From Myxococcales bacterium (lineage in GTDB: Bacteria > Myxococcota_A > UBA9042), in contig JBBISH010000001.1 of NCBI GenBank assembly GCA_037441385.1, forward strand, positions 113,546 through 177,545: a stretch of DNA of 64,000 bases, read 5' to 3'. Shown here in pieces: positions 42,952 through 56,579 of the stretch. Numbering within the stretch: position 1 is the stretch's first letter; each line of letters starts with the position of its first letter. Position numbers and translations under genes: made by a program. The notes beneath the pieces are model-generated. The model was not told where the DNA came from and ran no database searches. It was given only the letters and a program-made list of their open reading frames with translations.

Positions 42952-43140
42952 CTACTGTTTTTCAGCCGGCTCGTTGGTCTCGTCCCGCTTGGGCGGCTGT
43001 GGGTCGTCGTCGTGCAACATGCGCATGCCGGGGGTCGACAAGTCGTCGAACTGGCCACGCCGGACCGCCCACAGAAAAGTCGCGACCGCACCGGCTGACA
43101 TCAACAGTGCAATCGGAATCACCACATACAAGACGGACAT
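42952..43140 (-). CDS. ccoS: cbb3 oxidase assembly protein CcoS
   Basis: MSVLYVVIPIAL...FLWAVRRGQFDD; TGATG overlap with ccoI. Confidence 0.93.
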   Translation of the reverse strand: MSVLYVVIPIALLMSAGAVATFLWAVRRGQFDDLSTPGMRMLHDDDPQPPKRDETNEPAEKQ

Positions 43141-45608
43141 CAGCGACTCCGCGGCTTGGTGGGCTCCGCAGGCAACGCGAACGTGCGGCTGCGGAACGAA
43201 CTCGACACGACCGTGAGCGAGCTCAACGGCATCAGGATGGCGGCTACCAGCGGATGCAGCAAGCCCGTCATGGCCAGGGCCGTGCCAACCAAGTTGTAAA
43301 CCAGCGAAAATAGGATATTTCGCTTGATGACGGCCACCGTGCGCCGCGCACCCAGTAGCAGCTCGACCACCGCACCCAGGCCGGGCCGGGTCACAAAAGC
43401 GTCGCAGGCCTGCAGGCTTGCCTCGGCTCCCCCGTGCACGCTGATGCCGACCGTAGCTGCGGCCAAGGCAGCGGCGTCGTTGACCCCGTCGCCCACCATG
43501 ACCACGCCGCCGCGGTCCTTGCAGGCCTGCACGGCGGCCAGCTTGTCCTCGGGCGTGGCCGCACCGCGACAATCGCCAGGAAGAATCCCAAGTTGCCGGC
43601 CCACGGCGGCCACGACGCTGGGGTGGTCGCCCGACAGGATCCCCACTTCGCAGCCCAAGCGCCGCAGCTCGGCGATCGCCGCGGCCGCATCGGGGCGCAG
43701 CGGATCACCAAACCCCAGTGCGCCAACCACCGCGCCATCCACGGCCACGAGCACCGGCGTAATGCCATCGCTCGCCCAGGTTCCGGCCAAATCCCGATAC
43801 GTGTCGCCGCCTTGCTCGGTGCCCACCCAGGCCAACGAGCCCACGCGTACGGTCCGCCCCTGCACAACCCCGCGGACACCGCCGCCCACGGTCTGCTGCA
43901 CGTCCACGGCGTCGAGCTCGGCTAGGTCGGGCCAAGCCTGCACCACCGCGCGAGCTAGGGGGTGGGAACTGTGCCGCTCCACAGCCAAGAGCAGCGGACG
44001 GTACTCGTCGGCCAGCTCGGCGCGCAGCAACTCGGTGCGCCCCTGGGTCAGCGTGCCGGTCTTGTCGAACCACACGCGCGACGGCTTGCTCAGCCGCTCG
44101 ACCACGTCGCCGCCCTTGACAAAGATGCCCAGACGCGCGGCCCGGCCCACAGCGGCGTGCACGGCCAGCGGCGTGGCCAGTCCCAGCGCACACGGACAGG
44201 TGACGATCAGTAGCGCAACCGTGTGGTCCAGCGCCAGACTGGGATCCAGCAGCCACCAGACCACTGCGGTGACCGCGGCCAGCGCCAGCACGACGGCCAC
44301 AAAGCGCCCCACGATGGCATCGGCCAGGGCCACGATCGGCGCGCGCCGCCGCGAGGCCTCTTCTACCGCCTGCATCAGCTTGCCGACACGGGTCAATTCG
44401 CCGGTCCGCTCCACCCGCTGCCGCAGCATGCCCGCCACATTCAGCGTGCCGGCGTGCACCAAGTCGCCCGGACCGACCTCGACCGGTCGCGACTCGCCCG
44501 TGAGCACGGACGCATCGATGGCCGACTGGCCCTCGACCACCTCGCCGTCGGCGGGAACGGTCTCGCCCGAGCGGACTTCCACGATGTCGCCGGCCGTCAG
44601 GCGCTCCAGCGCCACATCGCGCACCTGACCATCGGCCCCGACGAGGTGCGCCTGAGCCGGTGCCAGCGAAAACAGCAACTCGGCGGCATCACTGGCCTCG
44701 CGCCGCTGCCGCTGCTGCACCCACCGGCCCACCAGCAGGAGGAAGATAAGCGAGGCCACGGAGTCGAAATACACCTCGCCCTGGCCGCGCACCACGTTGA
44801 TCGCACCGCCCAAGAAGCCCGCAGAAAGGCCAATCGCAATCGGCAGATCCATGTGCAGCGCCCGCCCGCGCAGGGCCGTCCAGGCGCCACTAAAAAACGG
44901 CCTCGCGGCCCACAGAATCGACGGCAGCGTGATGAACATCGACGCCCAGCGAAACAACTGGGTCGTGTCGGCGTCCATGTCGGCGAACCAGCCGGCCCAC
45001 AGCGACACGGACAAGATCATCACGTTGCCGCTGACGGCCCAAGCGGCACCCATGCGAATCAGGAGAGTCCGCTCTTCTTGCAGGCGCAGTCGCCGCCGCT
45101 CGGCCCCGCGATAGGGGTGGGGCGGGTAGCCAAAGCGGTCCAACGTGCGGGCGATCTCGGCCAGGCTGACCACCTTGGGGTCCCACACGACCTCGGCCGA
45201 CGCGCGATGCAAGTCCAGGCGCGCATGGACGACGCCAGGCACCACCTGGCTCAGTCGCTCGACGATCCACACGCAGGCCGAGCAGTGCACCCCTTCCAGG
45301 AACAGCTCGACTTGCGCGAGACCGGCTGGCAATTCACGGACATACAGCGCAGCAAAACTGGGATCGCCCAGCTCGGCATAGTTGCGGCCACTGGCCCGCG
45401 TGACCACCACCGGCCCACCGCCGGCTTGCCGCAGCTGGTAGTACCGCTCCAGGCCCGCGCCTTGAATCGCCGCGTATACGGTTTCGCAGCCGTGGCAGCA
45501 GAATTGCAGCTCGCTGCCCGCCACTAGCAAGCCCGGTGGCACCGGCAACTGGCAGTGGCTGCAGGGCACGATCGAGCAGACGCCTTCCTGCGGCGCGTCA
45601 CTCGCCAT
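43140..45608 (-). CDS. ccoI: Heavy-metal (Cu) P1B-type ATPase CcoI/FixI
   Basis: CSHC/CCHGC N-domain, CSAC HMA, TGES, CPC, DKTGT, GDGVNDA. Confidence 0.93.
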   Translation of the reverse strand: MASDAPQEGVCSIVPCSHCQLPVPPGLLVAGSELQFCCHGCETVYAAIQGAGLERYYQLRQAGGGPVVVTRASGRNYAELGDPSFAALYVRELPAGLAQVELFLEGVHCSACVWIVERLSQVVPGVVHARLDLHRASAEVVWDPKVVSLAEIARTLDRFGYPPHPYRGAERRRLRLQEERTLLIRMGAAWAVSGNVMILSVSLWAGWFADMDADTTQLFRWASMFITLPSILWAARPFFSGAWTALRGRALHMDLPIAIGLSAGFLGGAINVVRGQGEVYFDSVASLIFLLLVGRWVQQRQRREASDAAELLFSLAPAQAHLVGADGQVRDVALERLTAGDIVEVRSGETVPADGEVVEGQSAIDASVLTGESRPVEVGPGDLVHAGTLNVAGMLRQRVERTGELTRVGKLMQAVEEASRRRAPIVALADAIVGRFVAVVLALAAVTAVVWWLLDPSLALDHTVALLIVTCPCALGLATPLAVHAAVGRAARLGIFVKGGDVVERLSKPSRVWFDKTGTLTQGRTELLRAELADEYRPLLLAVERHSSHPLARAVVQAWPDLAELDAVDVQQTVGGGVRGVVQGRTVRVGSLAWVGTEQGGDTYRDLAGTWASDGITPVLVAVDGAVVGALGFGDPLRPDAAAAIAELRRLGCEVGILSGDHPSVVAAVGRQLGILPGDCRGAATPEDKLAAVQACKDRGGVVMVGDGVNDAAALAAATVGISVHGGAEASLQACDAFVTRPGLGAVVELLLGARRTVAVIKRNILFSLVYNLVGTALAMTGLLHPLVAAILMPLSSLTVVSSSFRSRTFALPAEPTKPRSR

Positions 45609-46413
45609 GCGCTGGGTTCTCTTCCAGTTCGGGGTGCTTGCCGTGGCAGCACGATCCCTCTTCGCCTTTCTCGATCTTGTCCAGCTGCTCGGAGGCGCTG
45701 CGTGCGCCCATCGCGGTCGCCTTGGGCGAGCCCGGGATCTGAGGCAGCGCAGCGCGATGCGTCACGGCCAACATCCCCACCACCACCAGCGCCACCGCCG
45801 AAAGCTTGGGTAGGTGCGCCCGCAGCGGCCCGGCCAATTGCTGCACACCCACACCCAGGCCCACCAACAGGGGCACGGTGCCCAACCAGAACGCCGCCAT
45901 GGCCAGCGCGCCGTAGCCCGCGTGACCGGTACCCGCGGCCGTGACCACAAAGGCATACAGCCAACCGCACGGCAACAGGGCCGAGGCCAGGCCCAGCAAA
46001 CCGGCGCGCAAGACCGGCGGCTTACCCTGAAGCTTGCGCATCACCGCACCGTAGGCCCGTAGAATCCGTTGGGGAACGGGCGCAGCTGGCAAGCGCAGCC
46101 CCAAGGCCCGCGCCAGGGCCACCGCGCCCCACAGCACCATCACCGAGCCGGCCAGAACCGCCGCGGCCGCCTGCACGCCGGCCAGGTTGCCCGCCAAGTT
46201 CAGGGCCCCGCCCAAGCCGCCCGCCAGCGCCCCCAGCAAGACGTACGTCAAGCCACGGCCGCCGTGGTAGGCTAGATGCGGAAAACTTTTGGCGAAACCG
46301 CGAGCATCGTTGCCGGTGCCGGCGTAGAAGGCCACAAAGCCGCCGCACATGCCCGCGCAGTGGGTACTGCCGACCAGGCTGGCGACGAGGACGGTGGAGA
46401 TCAGTGAAAACAT
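45598..46413 (-). CDS. TauE/SafE / DsbD_2 family membrane protein (cbb3 accessory)
   Basis: STHCAGMCGG, LLPCGWLY, FWLGTVP. Confidence 0.88.
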   Translation of the reverse strand: MFSLISTVLVASLVGSTHCAGMCGGFVAFYAGTGNDARGFAKSFPHLAYHGGRGLTYVLLGALAGGLGGALNLAGNLAGVQAAAAVLAGSVMVLWGAVALARALGLRLPAAPVPQRILRAYGAVMRKLQGKPPVLRAGLLGLASALLPCGWLYAFVVTAAGTGHAGYGALAMAAFWLGTVPLLVGLGVGVQQLAGPLRAHLPKLSAVALVVVGMLAVTHRAALPQIPGSPKATAMGARSASEQLDKIEKGEEGSCCHGKHPELEENPAHGE

Positions 46414-46434: not shown

Positions 46435-47028
46435 CTAGCGCGTCGCTTCCACGTGCTGCTGCCACGTGTACAGGTCTTGGCCGCGGTGGAATTGCAGCTC
46501 TACGTCGTGGATGCCGGGGCGCGCCGCCGCAAACGGTAGCTCGTACCAGCCGGGCGCCACTTCCGTGCCTGCCAGAGCCTGCATGGTCTGGCCGCCGGTC
46601 AAAGCACCAATCCGCGCACTGAGTTGCGCGCCCTGCAGCGGCGCCCCATGGGCGTCTTTGAGCTGCACGCGCCACGCACCCTGCCCCACCGGCATGGGCT
46701 TGACCGCCACCTGCCAGCCCAGCTCGCTATTGTGGGCGACCTGTTTGGCGTGCTGGTCCCAGTCCAGCGCCTTCTTGTAGTAGTCCTTTTCGGCGGTAAA
46801 ACCAGGGTCGGCCAGGGCTTCAAACACAAGCCAACCACCAAAAATCATAGGGATCACCAGCAGAGCCACCACGAACAGCGGCCACTGCCAACCCGCCGCC
46901 CGCTCGCGGCGAGCCTGCGCGACTTGCCGTGCCGCCTCTAGCGCCAGGTTGCCGTCGTCACCGGTTCGGTTGGCGACGAAGCCAGCGGTCCCACCAGCTT
47001 TTCCACCATGATCTTGCCCAGTATGCAT
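46435..47028 (-). CDS. ccoH: FixH/CcoH family protein
   Basis: WPLFVVALL, KDYYKKALDW, LGWQ; position in the cco cluster; start uncertain. Confidence 0.8.
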   Translation of the reverse strand: MHTGQDHGGKAGGTAGFVANRTGDDGNLALEAARQVAQARRERAAGWQWPLFVVALLVIPMIFGGWLVFEALADPGFTAEKDYYKKALDWDQHAKQVAHNSELGWQVAVKPMPVGQGAWRVQLKDAHGAPLQGAQLSARIGALTGGQTMQALAGTEVAPGWYELPFAAARPGIHDVELQFHRGQDLYTWQQHVEATR

Positions 47029-47120: not shown

Positions 47121-48527
47121 CTAGGGACCTAGCAATTTGAACACAATGGTCTTTTCCAGTGTCTCGCCGTCGCCCACCACCACTTCGAGGTCGCGGCGCT
47201 TGCCGATGGCCGCCGCCTTGCCGATCACGAACATGCCCTCTGTGCGCAGTTCGCCGGCTTTGACCGGAATCGGGTTGTTTGGCGCCACCAACTGGAGATC
47301 GCCGGCATTCTTCAAGGTCACCTGGTACAGGTGATCGCTGCCGCTGTGATTGTGAATCTTGACGCGCATGGTGTTTTGCACGCTGCCGTCGTCCATCACC
47401 ACAAAGGGCGCGGCAATGCCGCGCAGCACGGTCACTTCGGCGTTGGTGCGCCGCGACAGGGCCAGCAGGAACAGGCCGCCGATGATCAGCAGACCCAGGG
47501 GGTACAGCGCCGTGCGCACCCGCAGCAGGTGGTGGCGCGCGGTCAGCGGAACCTTGTCCTCGATCTCTTGCTGCGCGCCGTAGCGGATCAGCCCGCGCGG
47601 CTTCTTGATCTTGTCCATCACCGCATCGCAGGCGTCGATGCACTGGGTGCACGAGATGCACTCGAGCTGCAGGCCCTGGCGGATGTCGATGCCCGTGGGG
47701 CAAGTCCGCACGCAGGCGCCACAATCCACGCAGTCGCCCACCGCCGGTGCACCGATCGACAGGTCGGCCGTGGCTTTCTTCTGCAGCTTGCCGCGGGGTT
47801 CGCCGCGGTTGACGTCGTACAAGACCACCAGCGAGCGCTTGTCGAGCAGCACGGATTGCAGGCGGGCGTACGGGCAGGCCACCACGCACATCTGGTCGCG
47901 GAACCAGGCAAAATCGATGAACATCATCACGCTGGTGATACCAACCACCGCAAAGCCTTCCGGGTGCTCGGCCGGCGGGCTCAGCACCCAGTGCCACAAC
48001 TGCCCCACCGGCACAAAATAGGCCAGGAACACGTTGGCCAGCAGGACCGACAGCACGGCGTAGATCGCGTACTTCAGCAGGCGGCGCGGCGCAAACTTCT
48101 GCTTATCGAGCTTTTCTTGCTCCTTGATGCTGCCCTCGATCAAACGCTCGATCGGCCGGAACAGGAATTCCATGTACACGGTCTGCGGGCAGCCCCAGCC
48201 GCACCATGCGCGACCGAACAGCGCGGTGATGAGGAAGATCGATAGGAAGATGCCCAGCAGACCCAGCATCAGCAGCACGGTGTCCGTGGCCAGCAAGGTC
48301 GCGCCAAAGAAGGTGAATTCCCGGCGCGGCAGGTCCAGCAGGATCGAAGGCTTGCCGCCGACTTGGATGAGCGGCAGCGCAACGAACAGCGCAATCAGCA
48401 GCCATCCCGTGATGAGCCGGCGCTTCCAGAAGTCGCCAGCTGCCACCACCGGCCGCATCCAACGGCGCGATCCGTCTACGTTCAGGGTCGATAGGACACG
48501 TTCTTCGGGGGTCTGGAAGTCGCTCAT
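47121..48527 (-). CDS. ccoG: Cytochrome c oxidase accessory protein CcoG/FixG
   Basis: GRAWCGWGCPQT, CPYARLQ, two ferredoxin CxxCxxC motifs. Confidence 0.96.
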   Translation of the reverse strand: MSDFQTPEERVLSTLNVDGSRRWMRPVVAAGDFWKRRLITGWLLIALFVALPLIQVGGKPSILLDLPRREFTFFGATLLATDTVLLMLGLLGIFLSIFLITALFGRAWCGWGCPQTVYMEFLFRPIERLIEGSIKEQEKLDKQKFAPRRLLKYAIYAVLSVLLANVFLAYFVPVGQLWHWVLSPPAEHPEGFAVVGITSVMMFIDFAWFRDQMCVVACPYARLQSVLLDKRSLVVLYDVNRGEPRGKLQKKATADLSIGAPAVGDCVDCGACVRTCPTGIDIRQGLQLECISCTQCIDACDAVMDKIKKPRGLIRYGAQQEIEDKVPLTARHHLLRVRTALYPLGLLIIGGLFLLALSRRTNAEVTVLRGIAAPFVVMDDGSVQNTMRVKIHNHSGSDHLYQVTLKNAGDLQLVAPNNPIPVKAGELRTEGMFVIGKAAAIGKRRDLEVVVGDGETLEKTIVFKLLGP

Positions 48528-48661
48528 CGTGGCACGCTCGCCTTGGGACGCGGTCTAGGTTGCCGGCCAGGTGTCGTCCACACCGTCGAATTCGGTGCGG
48601 GATGCCGCCAACGGCCAGGGCAGGCGCCCCATTTCGCAACCAACCTTCTGGTCAGAACCAT

Positions 48662-48675
48662 TTGATACTGAACAA
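48662..48675. promoter_or_regulatory. FNR-like box upstream of ccoG (TTGAT-ACTG-AACAA)
   Basis: One mismatch to TTGAT-N4-ATCAA, in the ccoP-ccoG gap. Confidence 0.65.
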
Positions 48676-48802
48676 AGTTTCAGCACTGACGCGGAAGGCT
48701 GGTCCTCCGTGACTTGGGAGCCACGGCAGGCCCTGTGGGTTCGCAGGGCGGTGATCCGCCCCCGGCGCTGGCGTCGGCAACCGGGGGCAGACCACGGGAA
48801 CG

Positions 48803-49507
48803 CTACAGCTTGGCGGGCTCGGGCGCGGCAGGCGTGGGCGCGGGCGCGGGAACAGCCGCCGGATCGGCGGCCGGGGTGGCCGCTGCCGGGGCCGGCGCCG
48901 CAGCGGGAGCCGGGACTGCAGCCGGGGTGGGAGCCGGTACGGGCGCGGCGTCGTCCGCCTCGACCGTGCCCTGCGGGGCCTTGCCGGCTACGTTGGTGTT
49001 GCGGAGCGACAGGACAAAGGCCGCGGCGGCCTTGATCTCGTCGGTCTTCAAGGTCAGGCGCCACGCGGGCATGCCCTTGCTCTGCACACCGTTGCCGATG
49101 GTCTTGAAGACCTGGCCCGGCTTGCCACCGTGGATCCACGCGTTATCGGTCAGGTTCGGACCGATCTTGCCTTCGGCCTTGTCGCCGTGGCAGACGGCGC
49201 AGCGCTCTTTGAAGATCGCGGCACCCTTGTCGATCAACGCCTTGTCGCCGGCAAAAGCCTTGACGTCGCCGTCGCTCAGGTCCGGCAGCTTGAACTGCGC
49301 GTACTTGATATCGGCTTCTTTGATTTCGTTCTCGTACTCCTGGTAGCGGTTTTGGCCCATGCCCAGCAGCTGGTAGTAGCCCCAGTAGCCGGCGGCGAAC
49401 ACGATGGTCAGCCAAACAAGGCCGTCCACCAGCCTTGGCAGGGGGTTGTCGTACTCCTGGATGCCATCGTAGTTATGTTCCAGCAAGCGGTCGTCGCGGT
49501 CAGCCAT
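48803..49507 (-). CDS. ccoP: cbb3 oxidase subunit III CcoP (monoheme)
   Basis: HNYDGIQEYDNPLP, single CAVCH, GPNLTD, GMPAW. Confidence 0.93.
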   Translation of the reverse strand: MADRDDRLLEHNYDGIQEYDNPLPRLVDGLVWLTIVFAAGYWGYYQLLGMGQNRYQEYENEIKEADIKYAQFKLPDLSDGDVKAFAGDKALIDKGAAIFKERCAVCHGDKAEGKIGPNLTDNAWIHGGKPGQVFKTIGNGVQSKGMPAWRLTLKTDEIKAAAAFVLSLRNTNVAGKAPQGTVEADDAAPVPAPTPAAVPAPAAAPAPAAATPAADPAAVPAPAPTPAAPEPAKL

Positions 49508-49739
49508 GGCCCACCTCCGTAGTGGTGCGTTCGCCCTGTGGGGCGGCTTGGTTCTTTGCGTCGGCGGGCACCAGACGGTCTTGGTCCAGAGGCATGGTGC
49601 CCCCACGCTCCATCGTCTGGCGATTGCGCGCCGAGAAGGTCCAGATGACTTGGGCGATGTAGACTGCGATGAACAGCACCATTGCTGCCACCGTCCAGCC
49701 CCACAGCCCCGTGTGGCTCATGATGTCACTGAGCCTCAC
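49500..49739 (-). CDS. ccoQ: cbb3 oxidase subunit IV CcoQ
   Basis: Single TM helix ending in MPL; GTGA overlap with the ccoNO stop. Confidence 0.78.
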   Translation of the reverse strand: MRLSDIMSHTGLWGWTVAAMVLFIAVYIAQVIWTFSARNRQTMERGGTMPLDQDRLVPADAKNQAAPQGERTTTEVGHG

Positions 49740-52018
49740 AGCGCACCTCCGCGCGCCGCCGGAGTGGGCTCCGCTTGCGTGACCGGCCCGCCCTCGGCGC
49801 CCTTGGCGGCCTTGGTGTCGGGCTTTTGCTGGATGTCGGTACCCAGGCGCTGCAGGTAGGCGATGAGCGCAGTGATCTTCTTGCCTTCCAAGCCCTTGGG
49901 GCCGCCGTCCTTCTCGATGGCGTCGGCGATTTCCTTGGCCTGGGTGCGGGCGGCCGCTTCGGCCTTGCCTTGCAGGACGTTTTCGCCGTAGGGCACGCCC
50001 AGCATCGCCATGGCGTCCACGCTCTTTTGCACCAGCGGCCAGTCCAACTCGTCGCTGAGCAGCCACGGGAAGGGCGGCATCACCGAATCCTTGGTCACGG
50101 TGGCGGGCGCTTCCATGTGGCGGACGTGCCACAGGTGCGGGTACTTGCCGCCCACGCGGTGCAGATCCGGACCGATGCGGCGCGAGCCCCACTGGAACGG
50201 GTGGTCGTAGACGAACTCGCCCGGCTTGCTGTACTCGCCGTAACGCTCGGTCTCAGCGCGGAACGGACGGACCATCTGCGAGTGGCAGTTGTAGCAGCCT
50301 TCCGAGATGTAGATCTCGCGACCGGCCAGCTCCAGCGGCGTGTACGGCTTGACGGTGGCGATGGTCGGGATGTTCGACTGGATGAGGAACGTGGGGATGA
50401 TCTCGAACAGCGAGGCAGAGATGACGGCCAGGGCGGTCAAGACGATGAACAGCAGCGCCTTGCGCTCCCACACGCGGTGCCAGCCGTAGCTGAAGAAGCC
50501 GCCTTCGCTGGCGTGATCGTCGGTCCAGGCCGGATCGAGCGCAGGGGCTTCGCCCACCACGTCGGCGTAGGTGGCCGGGCGGGCCATCCAGGTCTTGAGC
50601 AGGTTGTAGGCGCCCAGGCAGACGCCGGCAAAGAACAGCGTGCCGCCGACGATACGCAGGTAGTACATCGGCATCAGCTTCATCACGGTCTCGACGAAGT
50701 CGGGGTACTGCAGACGGCCCGTCTCGTCAAAGGCGCGCCACATCAGGCCCTGGGTCACGCCCGCGGTGTACATGGGGATGATGTAAAGCAGGATGCCCAC
50801 GGTGCCCAGCCAGAAGTGCAGTTCCGCCAGCTTCTTGCTGTGCAGCTTGGTCTGGAACAGGCGGGGAGCCAGCCAGTACAGCATGCCGAACGAGATGAAG
50901 CCGTTCCAACCCAGCGCGCCGCTGTGGACGTGGGCGATGGTCCAGTCGGTGTAGTGCGATAGCGAGTTGACGGCCTTGACCGACAGCATCGGGCCTTCGA
51001 ACGTGGACATGCCGTAGAACGTCACGCCGGCGACAAAGAACTTGAGGACCGGGTCCTCGGTCACTTTGTTCCAGGCGCCGCGCAGGGTCAGCAGGCCGTT
51101 GATCATGCCGCCCCAGCTGGGCATCCACAGCATGACCGAGAAGACCATGCCCAGGGTCGAGGCCCACTCGGGCAGCGCGGTGTAGTGGAGGTTGTGCGGA
51201 CCGGCCCACATGTAGATGAAGACCAGCGACCAGAAGTGCAGGATCGACAGCTTGTACGAGAACACCGGGCGCTCGGCCGCCTTGGGCATGAAGTAGTACA
51301 TCAAGCCCAGGAACGGCGTGGTCAAGAAGAACGCCACGGCGTTGTGGCCGTACCACCACTGCATGAAGGCGTCTTGCAGGCCCGCGTACAGCGAGTAGCT
51401 TTTCATCGGGCCGGCCGGGACTTCCAGCGAGTTGAAGATGTGCAGCACGGCGACAGCGACGATGCACGAGATGTAGAACCAGATCGCCACGTACAGGTGC
51501 CGCTCGCGGCGCTTGTAGATGGTGCCGAACAGGTTGATCGCAAAGGCCACCCACACCACCGCGATCGCGATGTCGATCGGCCACTCCAACTCGGCGTATT
51601 CCTTGCCGGTGGTGATGCCGAAGGGCAGCGTCAGGGCCGCCGAGACAATGATGGCCTGCCAGCCCCAGAAGTGGAACCAGCTGATGCCGTCGCTGAACAT
51701 GCGGGTCTTGAGCAGCCGCTGCGACGAATAGTAGACGCCCGTAAAAATCGCGTTGCCCGCAAAGGCGAAAATCACCGCGTTGGTGTGCAACGGGCGCAGG
51801 CGGCCAAAGTGCAGCCACCCCACATTCAGGGCCGGAAACGCCAACTGCGAGGCGATGATCAGGCCGACCAACATGCCGACGATCGCCCACACGACCGTGG
51901 CGGCGGCAAAAGCCCGCACTACGGCGTCGTCGTAGACGAAACGCTCCAGGCGGCTTCCGGGCGGCGAACTGGAGGCGGCCGAAGCGGACGCATCCGTGAT
52001 TACAGCGGAATTGCTCAT
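49736..52018 (-). CDS. ccoN: Fused cbb3-type oxidase subunits I/II (CcoN-CcoO); one CuB ligand reads Asn
   Basis: GRLRPLHTN, QWWYGHNAV, GPHNLHY, AHVHSG; CcoO part CYNCHSQ, WGSRRIGPDL, SVMP. Confidence 0.96.
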   Translation of the reverse strand: MSNSAVITDASASAASSSPPGSRLERFVYDDAVVRAFAAATVVWAIVGMLVGLIIASQLAFPALNVGWLHFGRLRPLHTNAVIFAFAGNAIFTGVYYSSQRLLKTRMFSDGISWFHFWGWQAIIVSAALTLPFGITTGKEYAELEWPIDIAIAVVWVAFAINLFGTIYKRRERHLYVAIWFYISCIVAVAVLHIFNSLEVPAGPMKSYSLYAGLQDAFMQWWYGHNAVAFFLTTPFLGLMYYFMPKAAERPVFSYKLSILHFWSLVFIYMWAGPHNLHYTALPEWASTLGMVFSVMLWMPSWGGMINGLLTLRGAWNKVTEDPVLKFFVAGVTFYGMSTFEGPMLSVKAVNSLSHYTDWTIAHVHSGALGWNGFISFGMLYWLAPRLFQTKLHSKKLAELHFWLGTVGILLYIIPMYTAGVTQGLMWRAFDETGRLQYPDFVETVMKLMPMYYLRIVGGTLFFAGVCLGAYNLLKTWMARPATYADVVGEAPALDPAWTDDHASEGGFFSYGWHRVWERKALLFIVLTALAVISASLFEIIPTFLIQSNIPTIATVKPYTPLELAGREIYISEGCYNCHSQMVRPFRAETERYGEYSKPGEFVYDHPFQWGSRRIGPDLHRVGGKYPHLWHVRHMEAPATVTKDSVMPPFPWLLSDELDWPLVQKSVDAMAMLGVPYGENVLQGKAEAAARTQAKEIADAIEKDGGPKGLEGKKITALIAYLQRLGTDIQQKPDTKAAKGAEGGPVTQAEPTPAARGGAL

Positions 52019-53076: not shown

Positions 53077-53270
53077 TTTCACGCGTAACGCCAGATTGGG
53101 CGTGACAAAACTCCGACATGCATCCGCAGCCATACGGCGTAAGTCGTTGAAAGATGGTGGAGCAACCCGTCGATGTGACAATCCGGCGACACCGACTGGC
53201 GCGAAACTTCGGGTTTACCGGCTACACTGACGATCACGGGGCGGGCGCACAGCCCGCGGTGGAGCACCCT

Positions 53271-54704
53271 ATGCAGCAATCTGGTACGCGCAGTGCCGCA
53301 GCGCTGTCGGCAACGACCGCCAGCCTGAATGATCCGAGTTCTCTTGAAGTTTTGAAGCGTTATGCTGGGCGCGGTCCGCGCTACACGTCGTACCCGCCCG
53401 CGACCGCTTGGCACGATCGGGTCGGCGAGACCGATTTCATTCAAGGGCTTGAGATGGTGCGGTCCCGGACGGTGCAGTCACCGCTGTCCGTGTACGTGCA
53501 TCTGCCGTTCTGCCCGAGTCAGTGCTGGTTTTGCGCCTGCAACGTGCTCATTACGCCGCGTACCGACCTGCAAGACGCCTACTTGGACGCGGTCGAGAAA
53601 GAAATCGAGATGCTGCGCCCGCACTTGCCCACGGGCGAGGTCGTGCAATTGCACTGGGGCGGCGGCTCGCCCAGCTTCTTGACGCCCGTGCAGATGCAGC
53701 GGCTGATGGGCCTGCTGCGCGGGGCGTTCCGCCTTGCCAAAGATGCTGAGATCGCGCTGGAAGTTGACCCGCGCATCACCTCGGACGACCATCTGTCGAC
53801 CCTGCGCAGCCTGGGCTTCAACCGCCTGTCCATGGGCGTGCAAGACGTGGACGACGAGGTGCAGGTCGCGATCCATCGCCAGCAATCGCTCGAGACGACG
53901 GCTAATTTCGTCAAGCGTTGCCGCGACATCGGCTTTGGCAGCTTGAACGTGGACCTGATCTACGGCTTGCCGGCTCAGACCGAGGAAAGCTTTGACAAAA
54001 CGCTCAGTTCGGTCATGGACATTGGACCCGATCGGGTCGCGCTGTACAGCTATGCGCACGTGCCGTGGCTCAAGCCCAGCCAACGGCGCATCGACGAGGC
54101 GCGCATCCCTGGGCCCGAACTGCGGTTTTCGCTGTTTCGTCAAGCGTTGCGCCGTTTTGGCGAGGGTGGCTACGCGGACATCGGCCTGGACCACTTTGCC
54201 AAGCCGACCGACGAACTGGCGATCGCCCGGCAAGACGGCACGCTGCAGCGCAATTTCATGGGCTACACCACCCGCTCCGGTGCCGAGCTCGTCGGCATCG
54301 GCCTCTCGTCGATCGGCCAAGTGGCGGGCCGCTTCATCCAAAACGAGAAGAAGCTCAAGAGCTACTACGAGCTCATCGAGTCCGGGCATCTGCCGGTCGA
54401 ACGCGGCTACGTGATGACGGCCGACGACCTGGTGCGCCAAGAGGTGATCCAGCAGCTGATGTGCCAGGGTCGCATCGACAAGCGCGCGATCGAGAAGCGG
54501 TTTACCGTAGACTTCGACGCCTACTTTGCCGAGTCGCTCAAGAAGCTGGCGCCGCACGCGGCCGACGGCCTGCTCGAGCTGGGCAGCGACTACGTCACGC
54601 CCACGGCCCTGGGCCGGGTGCTGGTGCGGGTGCTGGCGATGGCGTTTGACGCCCACTTGCCCAAGCCGGGCGAGGCCGGACCGCGCTTTTCGGCGACCGT
54701 GTAG
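53271..54704 (+). CDS. hemN: Oxygen-independent coproporphyrinogen III oxidase
   Basis: GPRYTSYP, YVHLPFC-x3-C-x2-C, HWGGG, RNFMGY. Confidence 0.97.
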   Translation: MQQSGTRSAAALSATTASLNDPSSLEVLKRYAGRGPRYTSYPPATAWHDRVGETDFIQGLEMVRSRTVQSPLSVYVHLPFCPSQCWFCACNVLITPRTDLQDAYLDAVEKEIEMLRPHLPTGEVVQLHWGGGSPSFLTPVQMQRLMGLLRGAFRLAKDAEIALEVDPRITSDDHLSTLRSLGFNRLSMGVQDVDDEVQVAIHRQQSLETTANFVKRCRDIGFGSLNVDLIYGLPAQTEESFDKTLSSVMDIGPDRVALYSYAHVPWLKPSQRRIDEARIPGPELRFSLFRQALRRFGEGGYADIGLDHFAKPTDELAIARQDGTLQRNFMGYTTRSGAELVGIGLSSIGQVAGRFIQNEKKLKSYYELIESGHLPVERGYVMTADDLVRQEVIQQLMCQGRIDKRAIEKRFTVDFDAYFAESLKKLAPHAADGLLELGSDYVTPTALGRVLVRVLAMAFDAHLPKPGEAGPRFSATV

Positions 54705-56075: not shown

Positions 56076-56579
56076 ATGGCGACCCTGACGTCGGCCAACC
56101 TGCGCCATCGCCTGGTACTGCAACCCCGCGGCTACCAGTTCAGCATCGCGGACAACCTGTACGATCTCAACTGGGTAACGGTGTTGGCCCGTCTGGTGTC
56201 GCCGGGGCAGCCGGGGCGGATCGTCAAGACCCGCCTGGCCACGTGGGAGCTATCGAGCATGGCGGCCCACCTGGAGCAACTAGCCGACGGCACGCGCACG
56301 TTGTGGCAGCCGCGTTTTTTTGATTCGGGCCTGCATTTGTGGCTGATGCGATCCACCGAGCGGCCCGATCTGATCCTGGTTACGGTGGTGCTGGCCCAAG
56401 TCACCGGGCCGCCGCCCATGGATGTCCTTGAGCACTGGCGTGGCGATCGCATGACGCACGAGGACGGATTGCAGGGGTTGCGCTTTGTTTGCACCCGCGG
56501 CGCGTTGGCGCTTTTTGCCGAAGAACTGCGTATCATCATGCAGGCTTACCCTACTCGGGCGCTCCGCCCTACTGGTTGA
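56076..56579 (+). CDS. Hypothetical protein, possibly WapI-like immunity family
   Basis: GGAGG RBS; GYQF-x6-YDLNW motif recalled from WapI-family proteins. Confidence 0.55.
   Translation: MATLTSANLRHRLVLQPRGYQFSIADNLYDLNWVTVLARLVSPGQPGRIVKTRLATWELSSMAAHLEQLADGTRTLWQPRFFDSGLHLWLMRSTERPDLILVTVVLAQVTGPPPMDVLEHWRGDRMTHEDGLQGLRFVCTRGALALFAEELRIIMQAYPTRALRPTG

Follow-up and report, generated by a model that had tools for sequence, protein, structure and literature searches.

Does an asparagine at a copper-ligand position mark a cbb3-type oxidase of a new kind, or is it a one-off of the record that carries it? The question is raised by a 64,000-nucleotide stretch of DNA from a Myxococcales bacterium (contig JBBISH010000001.1), analysed here as a whole and called the window, whose minus strand at 51202-51182 reads GGT CCG CAC AAC CTC CAC TAC. 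The original prediction, made from these letters, took the encoded GPHNLHY motif as the sign of a C-family enzyme with an altered metal site or chemistry, for example NO or N2O handling. As the alternative it named either one erroneous C-to-A call or an inactivating mutation private to this organism. Our analysis favours this alternative: the change is a one-off that has not persisted in evolution, and the part of the gene in which it lies is without independent support.

A fused ccoN-ccoO gene with asparagine at a CuB ligand position

The motif was read as predicted. The AAC codon occupies 51193-51191 and specifies residue 276 when counted from the ATG at 52018, in a reading frame that ends with a stop at 49736; the interval originally given, 51182-51215, also spans the preceding IYMWA codons. 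Exactly the same 760-aa protein is on record at NCBI. Pfam places COX1 on residues 33-461 (393.8 bits) and FixO on residues 514-729 (298.8 bits). Since the two domains follow each other in a single ORF, the gene is a CcoN-CcoO fusion. A phmmer search against PDB chains matched its CcoN part, residues 28-484, to 3mk7_A (E 4.7e-182), with a second match to 3mk7_B, the CcoO chain (E 2.9e-53).

The helix-7 Tyr of cbb3 oxidases is cross-linked, and its equivalent here, Tyr269, aligns with the canonical position, as do the heme b and heme b3 ligands His78, His363 and His365. The landmarks present are His78 in PLHTN, His225 in WYGHN, Tyr269 in IYMW, His275, Glu341 in FEGP, His363 and His365 in AHVHS, and CYNCH at 575. 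The claim that the heme ligands, the tyrosine, the FEGP glutamate and the CcoO heme motif are intact was thus confirmed. At the motif itself, the phmmer alignment pairs 'wagphnlhyt' with 'wagphhlhyt' of 3mk7_A, and counting along it sets Asn276 opposite residue 258. According to the available text of PMC3578206, CuB is bound in P. stutzeri CcoN by His207, His257 and His258. Two of the three are present in the window protein, as His225 and His275, and the third position, 276, is Asn in the record. Of the eight landmark positions, the protein therefore departs from the canonical residue at one, position 276. Because AAC is a single base from the canonical CAC, chance is not at issue in this observation; what is at issue is whether the base is true.

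The gene lies in an intact cbb3 operon

The genes that accompany a cbb3-type oxidase, ccoP, ccoG, ccoH and ccoI, are all present and intact (Table 1). In particular, the copper-delivery genes ccoG and ccoI, which had been said to lie alongside, are both found intact downstream by Pfam. Two minus-strand ORFs with no Pfam match, at 48555-49139 and 49408-49704, are placed between ccoNO and ccoP or overlap them; a small ccoQ-like gene or another ccoP start is possible there. Further away, a plus-strand ORF at 56076-56579 has a WapI-like immunity protein domain (PF24716, E 1.5e-12).

Table 1. Features of the window discussed in the text, with positions counted from its first base.
Feature	Position	Strand	Basis or remark
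Fused ccoN-ccoO, cbb3-type oxidase subunits I + II	49736..52018	-	760 aa + stop; ORF, Pfam, PDB match, NCBI exact protein
AAC codon, Asn276; opposite CuB ligand His258 of P. stutzeri CcoN	51191..51193	-	1 base (51193) from CAC
Stretch of the gene not reproduced by run X1 contigs, includes the Asn codon	51138..51271		exact contigs stop at 51137 and restart at 51272
ccoP-like subunit	48803..49606	-	FixP_N + one cbb3-type cytochrome c domain; candidate start codon
ccoG, FixG-type 4Fe-4S protein	47121..48527	-	Fer4_18, FixG_C
fixH/ccoH	46435..47028	-	FixH
DsbD_2-type membrane protein	45598..46413	-	Pfam
ccoI, P-type ATPase with HMA domain (copper delivery)	43140..45608	-	E1-E2_ATPase, Hydrolase, ATPase-cat_bd, HMA
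Divergent hemN-like radical SAM gene, upstream of ccoNO	53154..54704	+	Radical_SAM, HemN_C

The source genome consists of 221 contigs, is about 91% complete and has a single ccoN match. We considered whether the Asn copy might be a spare beside a canonical ccoN paralogue and rejected this, as there is one ccoN match in this genome, at that completeness, and one in each of the two Paracoccaceae MAGs described below. A second heme-copper oxidase subunit I is encoded at G000:C1:110802-112136, about 1.4 kb before the first base of the window (COX1, 501 bits), and a search with PF01654 found no bd oxidase in the genome, as far as its 91% completeness reaches. With a second heme-copper oxidase present, the organism does not depend on cbb3 alone, and the loss of cbb3 need not kill it.

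Close relatives keep the histidine

We searched 40 relatives, 23 of which gave a match (24 of 41 when the window's own genome is counted); the site was covered in 20 genomes. The codon is CAC or CAT, and hence His, in every one of the 20, which include orthologues 97%, 93%, 81% and 80% identical to the window protein. When the latter was aligned with 19 orthologues, five of its residues proved to be private, and Asn276 was the only one of them to fall in a column where all 19 agree. Compared with the nearest orthologue, the gene differs at 132 codons synonymously and at 23 non-synonymously, which indicates ordinary purifying selection on the gene and no other decay.

The proteins closest to that of the window bear the source names of uncultured Myxococcota and Polyangiaceae and are canonical fused CcoN-CcoO. 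Its 90% cluster contains only two other proteins, both with His, and the protein collection holds no second assembly of the species. One protein of this cluster, P0013 (NCBI MBI5611203.1, annotated as 'cytochrome-c oxidase, cbb3-type subunit I'), has the same 760 aa and the same domain order and is identical at 737 of 760 positions; it reads GPHHLHY where the window protein reads GPHNLHY, and the remaining 22 differences fall in variable positions.

Two of the orthologous regions showed irregularities of their own. The same-genus ccoNO orthologue at G003:C18:40116-42356 (L006) has one TGA inside the match. The same-class region at G026:C42:38761-41031 (L023, L026) was matched in six pieces, one of which contains two TGA stops; a decaying gene or a frameshifted assembly may explain this.

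It had also been suggested that the His two residues downstream of Asn276 might compensate as a ligand. In 7 of the 20 relatives' genomes this position is Leu (GPHHLL), as it is in many cluster representatives. Being variable, the downstream His offers no conserved ligand candidate, and the suggestion was not upheld.

The codon falls in a stretch that the contigs of the source run do not reproduce

Support for the base was judged on the assembled contigs of four sequencing runs, labelled as subsurface metagenomes; contigs show presence and not absence, so that a hole among them proves nothing. Of the gene's sampled 31-letter words, run X1 contains 0.93 and every other run 0.23 or less. Contigs of X1 are identical to the window over 50950-51137 (depth 8.2) and over 51272-51450 (depth 10.7), and the Asn codon lies in the 134 bases between them. 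Words touching these 134 bases make up 164 of the 2328 starts (7%), a proportion that matches the missing share; this stretch thus appears to be the sole part of the gene absent from the X1 contigs.

On the plus strand, position 51193 is T in the window. Contigs of the runs that cover the position have G, the letter of His, in 43 of 43 cases (6/6 in X1, 1/1 in X2, 18/18 in X3 and 18/18 in X4). These contigs carry several further mismatches and belong to other organisms, which leaves them silent on the source organism's own reads. At 51188 and 51200, too, the letters of the window differ from most or all of these contigs. Consequently, the T sits on the organism's own haplotype and not on a path borrowed from an abundant neighbour. 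The contigs provide no independent support for the T at 51193; they neither confirm nor disprove it.

The reading that we favour is that this T (coding-strand A, turning CAC into AAC) arose as a wrong consensus call where the assembly is of low depth and weakly supported. Under this reading a Polyangiaceae-like myxobacterial MAG has a fused ccoNO of the usual kind, set in a complete cbb3 operon, and the real enzyme of the organism would have a canonical GPHH CuB site. We give such an error an even chance. On the plus strand the odd T repeats the T that precedes it and lies 20-30 bases after GGC triplets; the available text of PMC3141275 describes a repeated preceding base after GGC as a pattern of sequence-specific Illumina errors. 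Since GGC is common in DNA of 65% G+C, this context counts as compatible with an error rather than as a sign of one. Against an error, a majority-wrong base is uncommon at a depth of 8-11, and the T stands on the organism's own haplotype.

This last point is equally what would be expected if His276Asn were a real, very young private allele in the population sampled, with CuB binding and thereby cbb3 activity reduced or lost. Such an allele could be tolerated if O2 respiration through cbb3 were dispensable in the habitat or if another oxidase covered for it. The second heme-copper oxidase just outside the window agrees with this, as do the subsurface labels of the runs, which suggest that oxygen may be scarce. 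An intact operon and a gene with no other decay also fit a very recent change. On the other side, the allele was seen in no contig of the four runs, which can show presence only, and in the protein collection, which has no second assembly of the species, the two companions in the 90% cluster both have His. We hold a young allele to be possible, if clearly short of probable.

Two further GPHN genes form no clade

The change is not confined to the window. We scanned one genome per species, 185,579 species in all, with a degenerate DNA pattern for W-x-G-P-H-N-L-H-Y-T, a design that a GPHN clade with other residues after the Asn would escape. Two more GPHN sequences were found, both in true CcoN genes of MAGs: JBHJIZ010000016.1, named Paracoccaceae bacterium, and JBHJGY010000011.1, named Pikeienuella sp., both Paracoccaceae (L031:1501-1529 and L032:1501-1529). 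In each, AAC stands at the equivalent CuB ligand codon of the sole ccoN match. The same scan gave no match in 241 million metagenome records. All three GPHN genes thus use AAC, one step from CAC, and AAT occurs in none.

The two Paracoccaceae genes are 81.5% identical at the DNA level, and the identical stretch around the codon is just 23 bases long. Among relatives of the Pikeienuella MAG, His is present at all 24 loci that cover the site. The Pikeienuella CcoN is 86%, 84% and 83% identical to His-bearing proteins and 79% identical to the other Asn-bearing one; being nearer to the former, it does not form a clade with the latter. Common ancestry of the two genes and recombination between them were accordingly rejected, on the DNA identity, the short shared stretch and the nearer HH relatives. 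Compared with 22 other orthologues, each of the two Paracoccaceae CcoN proteins departs from an invariant column at just one private residue, the Asn. An exact-sequence cluster look-up further showed that the protein of the Paracoccaceae bacterium MAG shares its cluster with two proteins, of 540 and 444 aa, from which it differs in nothing but the His they have at the site, and with two further mates, differing at three and five residues, that both have His. These otherwise identical His-bearing mates fit a strain polymorphism as well as an error. Separately, we note that the two MAGs are alike in accession prefix and naming style, and a shared technical cause may be behind them.

The search for GPHN homologues that might form a clade thus had a divided outcome: others do exist, two in number, and they are unrelated singletons with nearer HH relatives and with no AAT codon among them. 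The same holds for what had been named as telling against a variant enzyme, namely close relatives that are all HH together with the lack of any other GPHN sequence. The relatives are indeed all HH; the second part does not strictly apply, as two other GPHN sequences exist, without forming a clade.

How does this recurrence bear on the origin of the base? Random loss of function is unlikely to strike one base in three unrelated MAGs, since stops, frameshifts and hundreds of missense sites are equally open to it. One base change that recurs across different organisms is therefore unexpected for a young inactivating allele and favours an error. An error in turn would have to be context-specific to give three MAGs alike, which we consider plausible, and recurrence at one site would also be expected from selection for a specific change. 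GGT CCG precedes CAC AAC in all three GPHN genes, and also in 7 of the 42 distinct His-bearing sequences tabulated; this comparison is post-hoc, has three cases and supports nothing firm. We infer a technical origin rather than a very young real allele.

Recurrence likewise raises the third reading, that Asn at CuB is real, selected, function-changing and recurrent in cbb3 oxidases, with another metal or geometry, inhibitor tolerance, or NO/N2O chemistry as its outcome. The identical swap in three independent lineages, with the other landmarks and the rest of the gene intact, is the one point in these data that speaks for it. Set against this are the lack of a clade, each case being a tip whose nearest relatives are HH, the absence of the GPHNLHYT pattern from the 241 million metagenome records, and the use of AAC in three of three codons; nor is the His proposed as a substitute ligand conserved. 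As one case differs from His-bearing proteins at this residue alone and all cases are tips, no such allele has persisted.

Other substitutions at the site

Protein searches with the motif region point in the same direction; they list cluster representatives, so that one-offs inside clusters are uncounted. Of the best 120 representatives in a first search, 118 had GPHHLHY, two GPHRLHY and none GPHN, and the best 120 in a second search comprised 119 with GPHHLHY and the query itself. Arginine was met in sequences of two sorts. In P0100 (ENA, 746 aa) it is a His-to-Arg one-off at the equivalent codon, with His in six of six cluster mates, a parallel to the Asn cases that we count in favour of an error. 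P0002 and P0132 (JGI, 551 aa) are fused CcoNO-like proteins with GPHRLHY that differ from each other at five residues and stop short of the CcoO heme motif; a decaying or split gene with an inherited Arg could account for them.

When metagenome contigs were scanned with a pattern allowing any non-C first base in the codon, four matches were obtained, three of them due to chance and one a CcoN fragment with Tyr, too few to give a rate. This fragment (L067:601-629, SMVB01148227.1) reads GPHYLHY, has an in-frame stop just upstream and loses similarity as soon as the motif ends, which gives it the look of a broken or chimeric sequence.

Loss of the histidine in the wider CcoN family

Searching 1.84 billion representatives of 50% clusters, we obtained 4394 matches, and the counts that follow come from the best 150 of them. 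The site column was covered by 128 of these 150 and held His in 88 and another residue in 40. Among the same best 150, 53 diverse representatives cover all eight landmark positions, and in none of the 53 is this His the only one changed, which again tells against a selected variant. In the three representatives where the column holds Asn, the His before it is missing as well, along with other landmarks.

The 40 of 128 representatives without His at the CuB column (among P0146-P0287; best 150 of 4394) for the most part lack several ligands. As CcoN homologues without His at this column, such cofactor-poor families resemble the window protein; they differ from it in that several ligands are gone together and in being at most about 57% identical to it, whereas in the window protein seven of eight landmarks are retained and identity to a canonical enzyme reaches 97%. 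With one landmark position of eight differing, it was not assigned to these families.

Comparison with known enzymes

A structurally solved point of comparison is CcoN1/CcoO of P. stutzeri (PDB 3MK7, 5DJQ), with which the window protein shares both heme ligand sets, the Tyr and the equivalents of His207 and His257. The two differ in that the subunits are fused in the window and that the equivalent of His258 is Asn there, in the numbering used in the available text of PMC3578206.

A His-to-Asn change at a non-heme metal site does have a precedent. The putative NO dismutases, qNOR-derived proteins represented by Methylomirabilis DAMO_2434 and its relatives, have one His of the non-heme site replaced by Asn, according to the available text of PMC3413370; the likeness to the window protein is one at the level of the superfamily. 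This precedent lends some support to a selected variant. In the same text, however, the Asn of the NO dismutases is group-wide, and with it these proteins have exchanged a Glu for Gln, changed their proton channel and lost the quinol site. In the window, by contrast, the change is a singleton and all other landmarks are those of a canonical cbb3 oxidase. A consistent Asn that comes with other changes is thus unlike what is seen here, and the comparison counts against the selected variant as well as for it.

A clade of ligand-swapped enzymes would be expected to carry the swap in related genomes, and changes elsewhere in the protein might accompany it. What we found instead was His in 20 of 20 relatives' genomes, at 24 of 24 loci of GPHN-gene relatives and in the cluster mates, and Asn276 as the sole private residue in an invariant column, with the other seven landmarks canonical. 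With histidine in all 20 relatives and the other GPHN genes being unrelated singletons, the idea of a variant C-family enzyme with an altered metal site or chemistry found no support, and the one-off error or private mutation offered as its alternative is preferred. That Asn at CuB is selected and changes the function of the enzyme we consider very unlikely. Much the same low probability attaches to a recurrent allele that is selected for a CuB change such as inhibitor tolerance or another metal, and whose cost stops it from persisting. The three cases are tip one-offs in unrelated MAGs, with no descendants and no accompanying changes. On these sequence comparisons we would exclude with good confidence that selection maintains a class of such variant enzymes. 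Conversely, it is highly probable that one or the other of the one-off readings, consensus error or young allele, is correct rather than any new enzyme class.

Most likely the asparagine in the window reflects an error of assembly or a defect of very recent origin and not a new kind of enzyme. More generally, swaps of a single 'catalytic residue' in MAGs should be confirmed in the reads and examined for a clade that shares them before claims of new enzymology are made. That one base change turns up in three MAGs is a minor oddity, possibly a context-specific error. Were the asparagine genuine and favoured by selection, no C-family oxidase before it would have shown a natural swap of one CuB ligand, and the gene would offer a handle on how the copper site sets O2 against NO chemistry.
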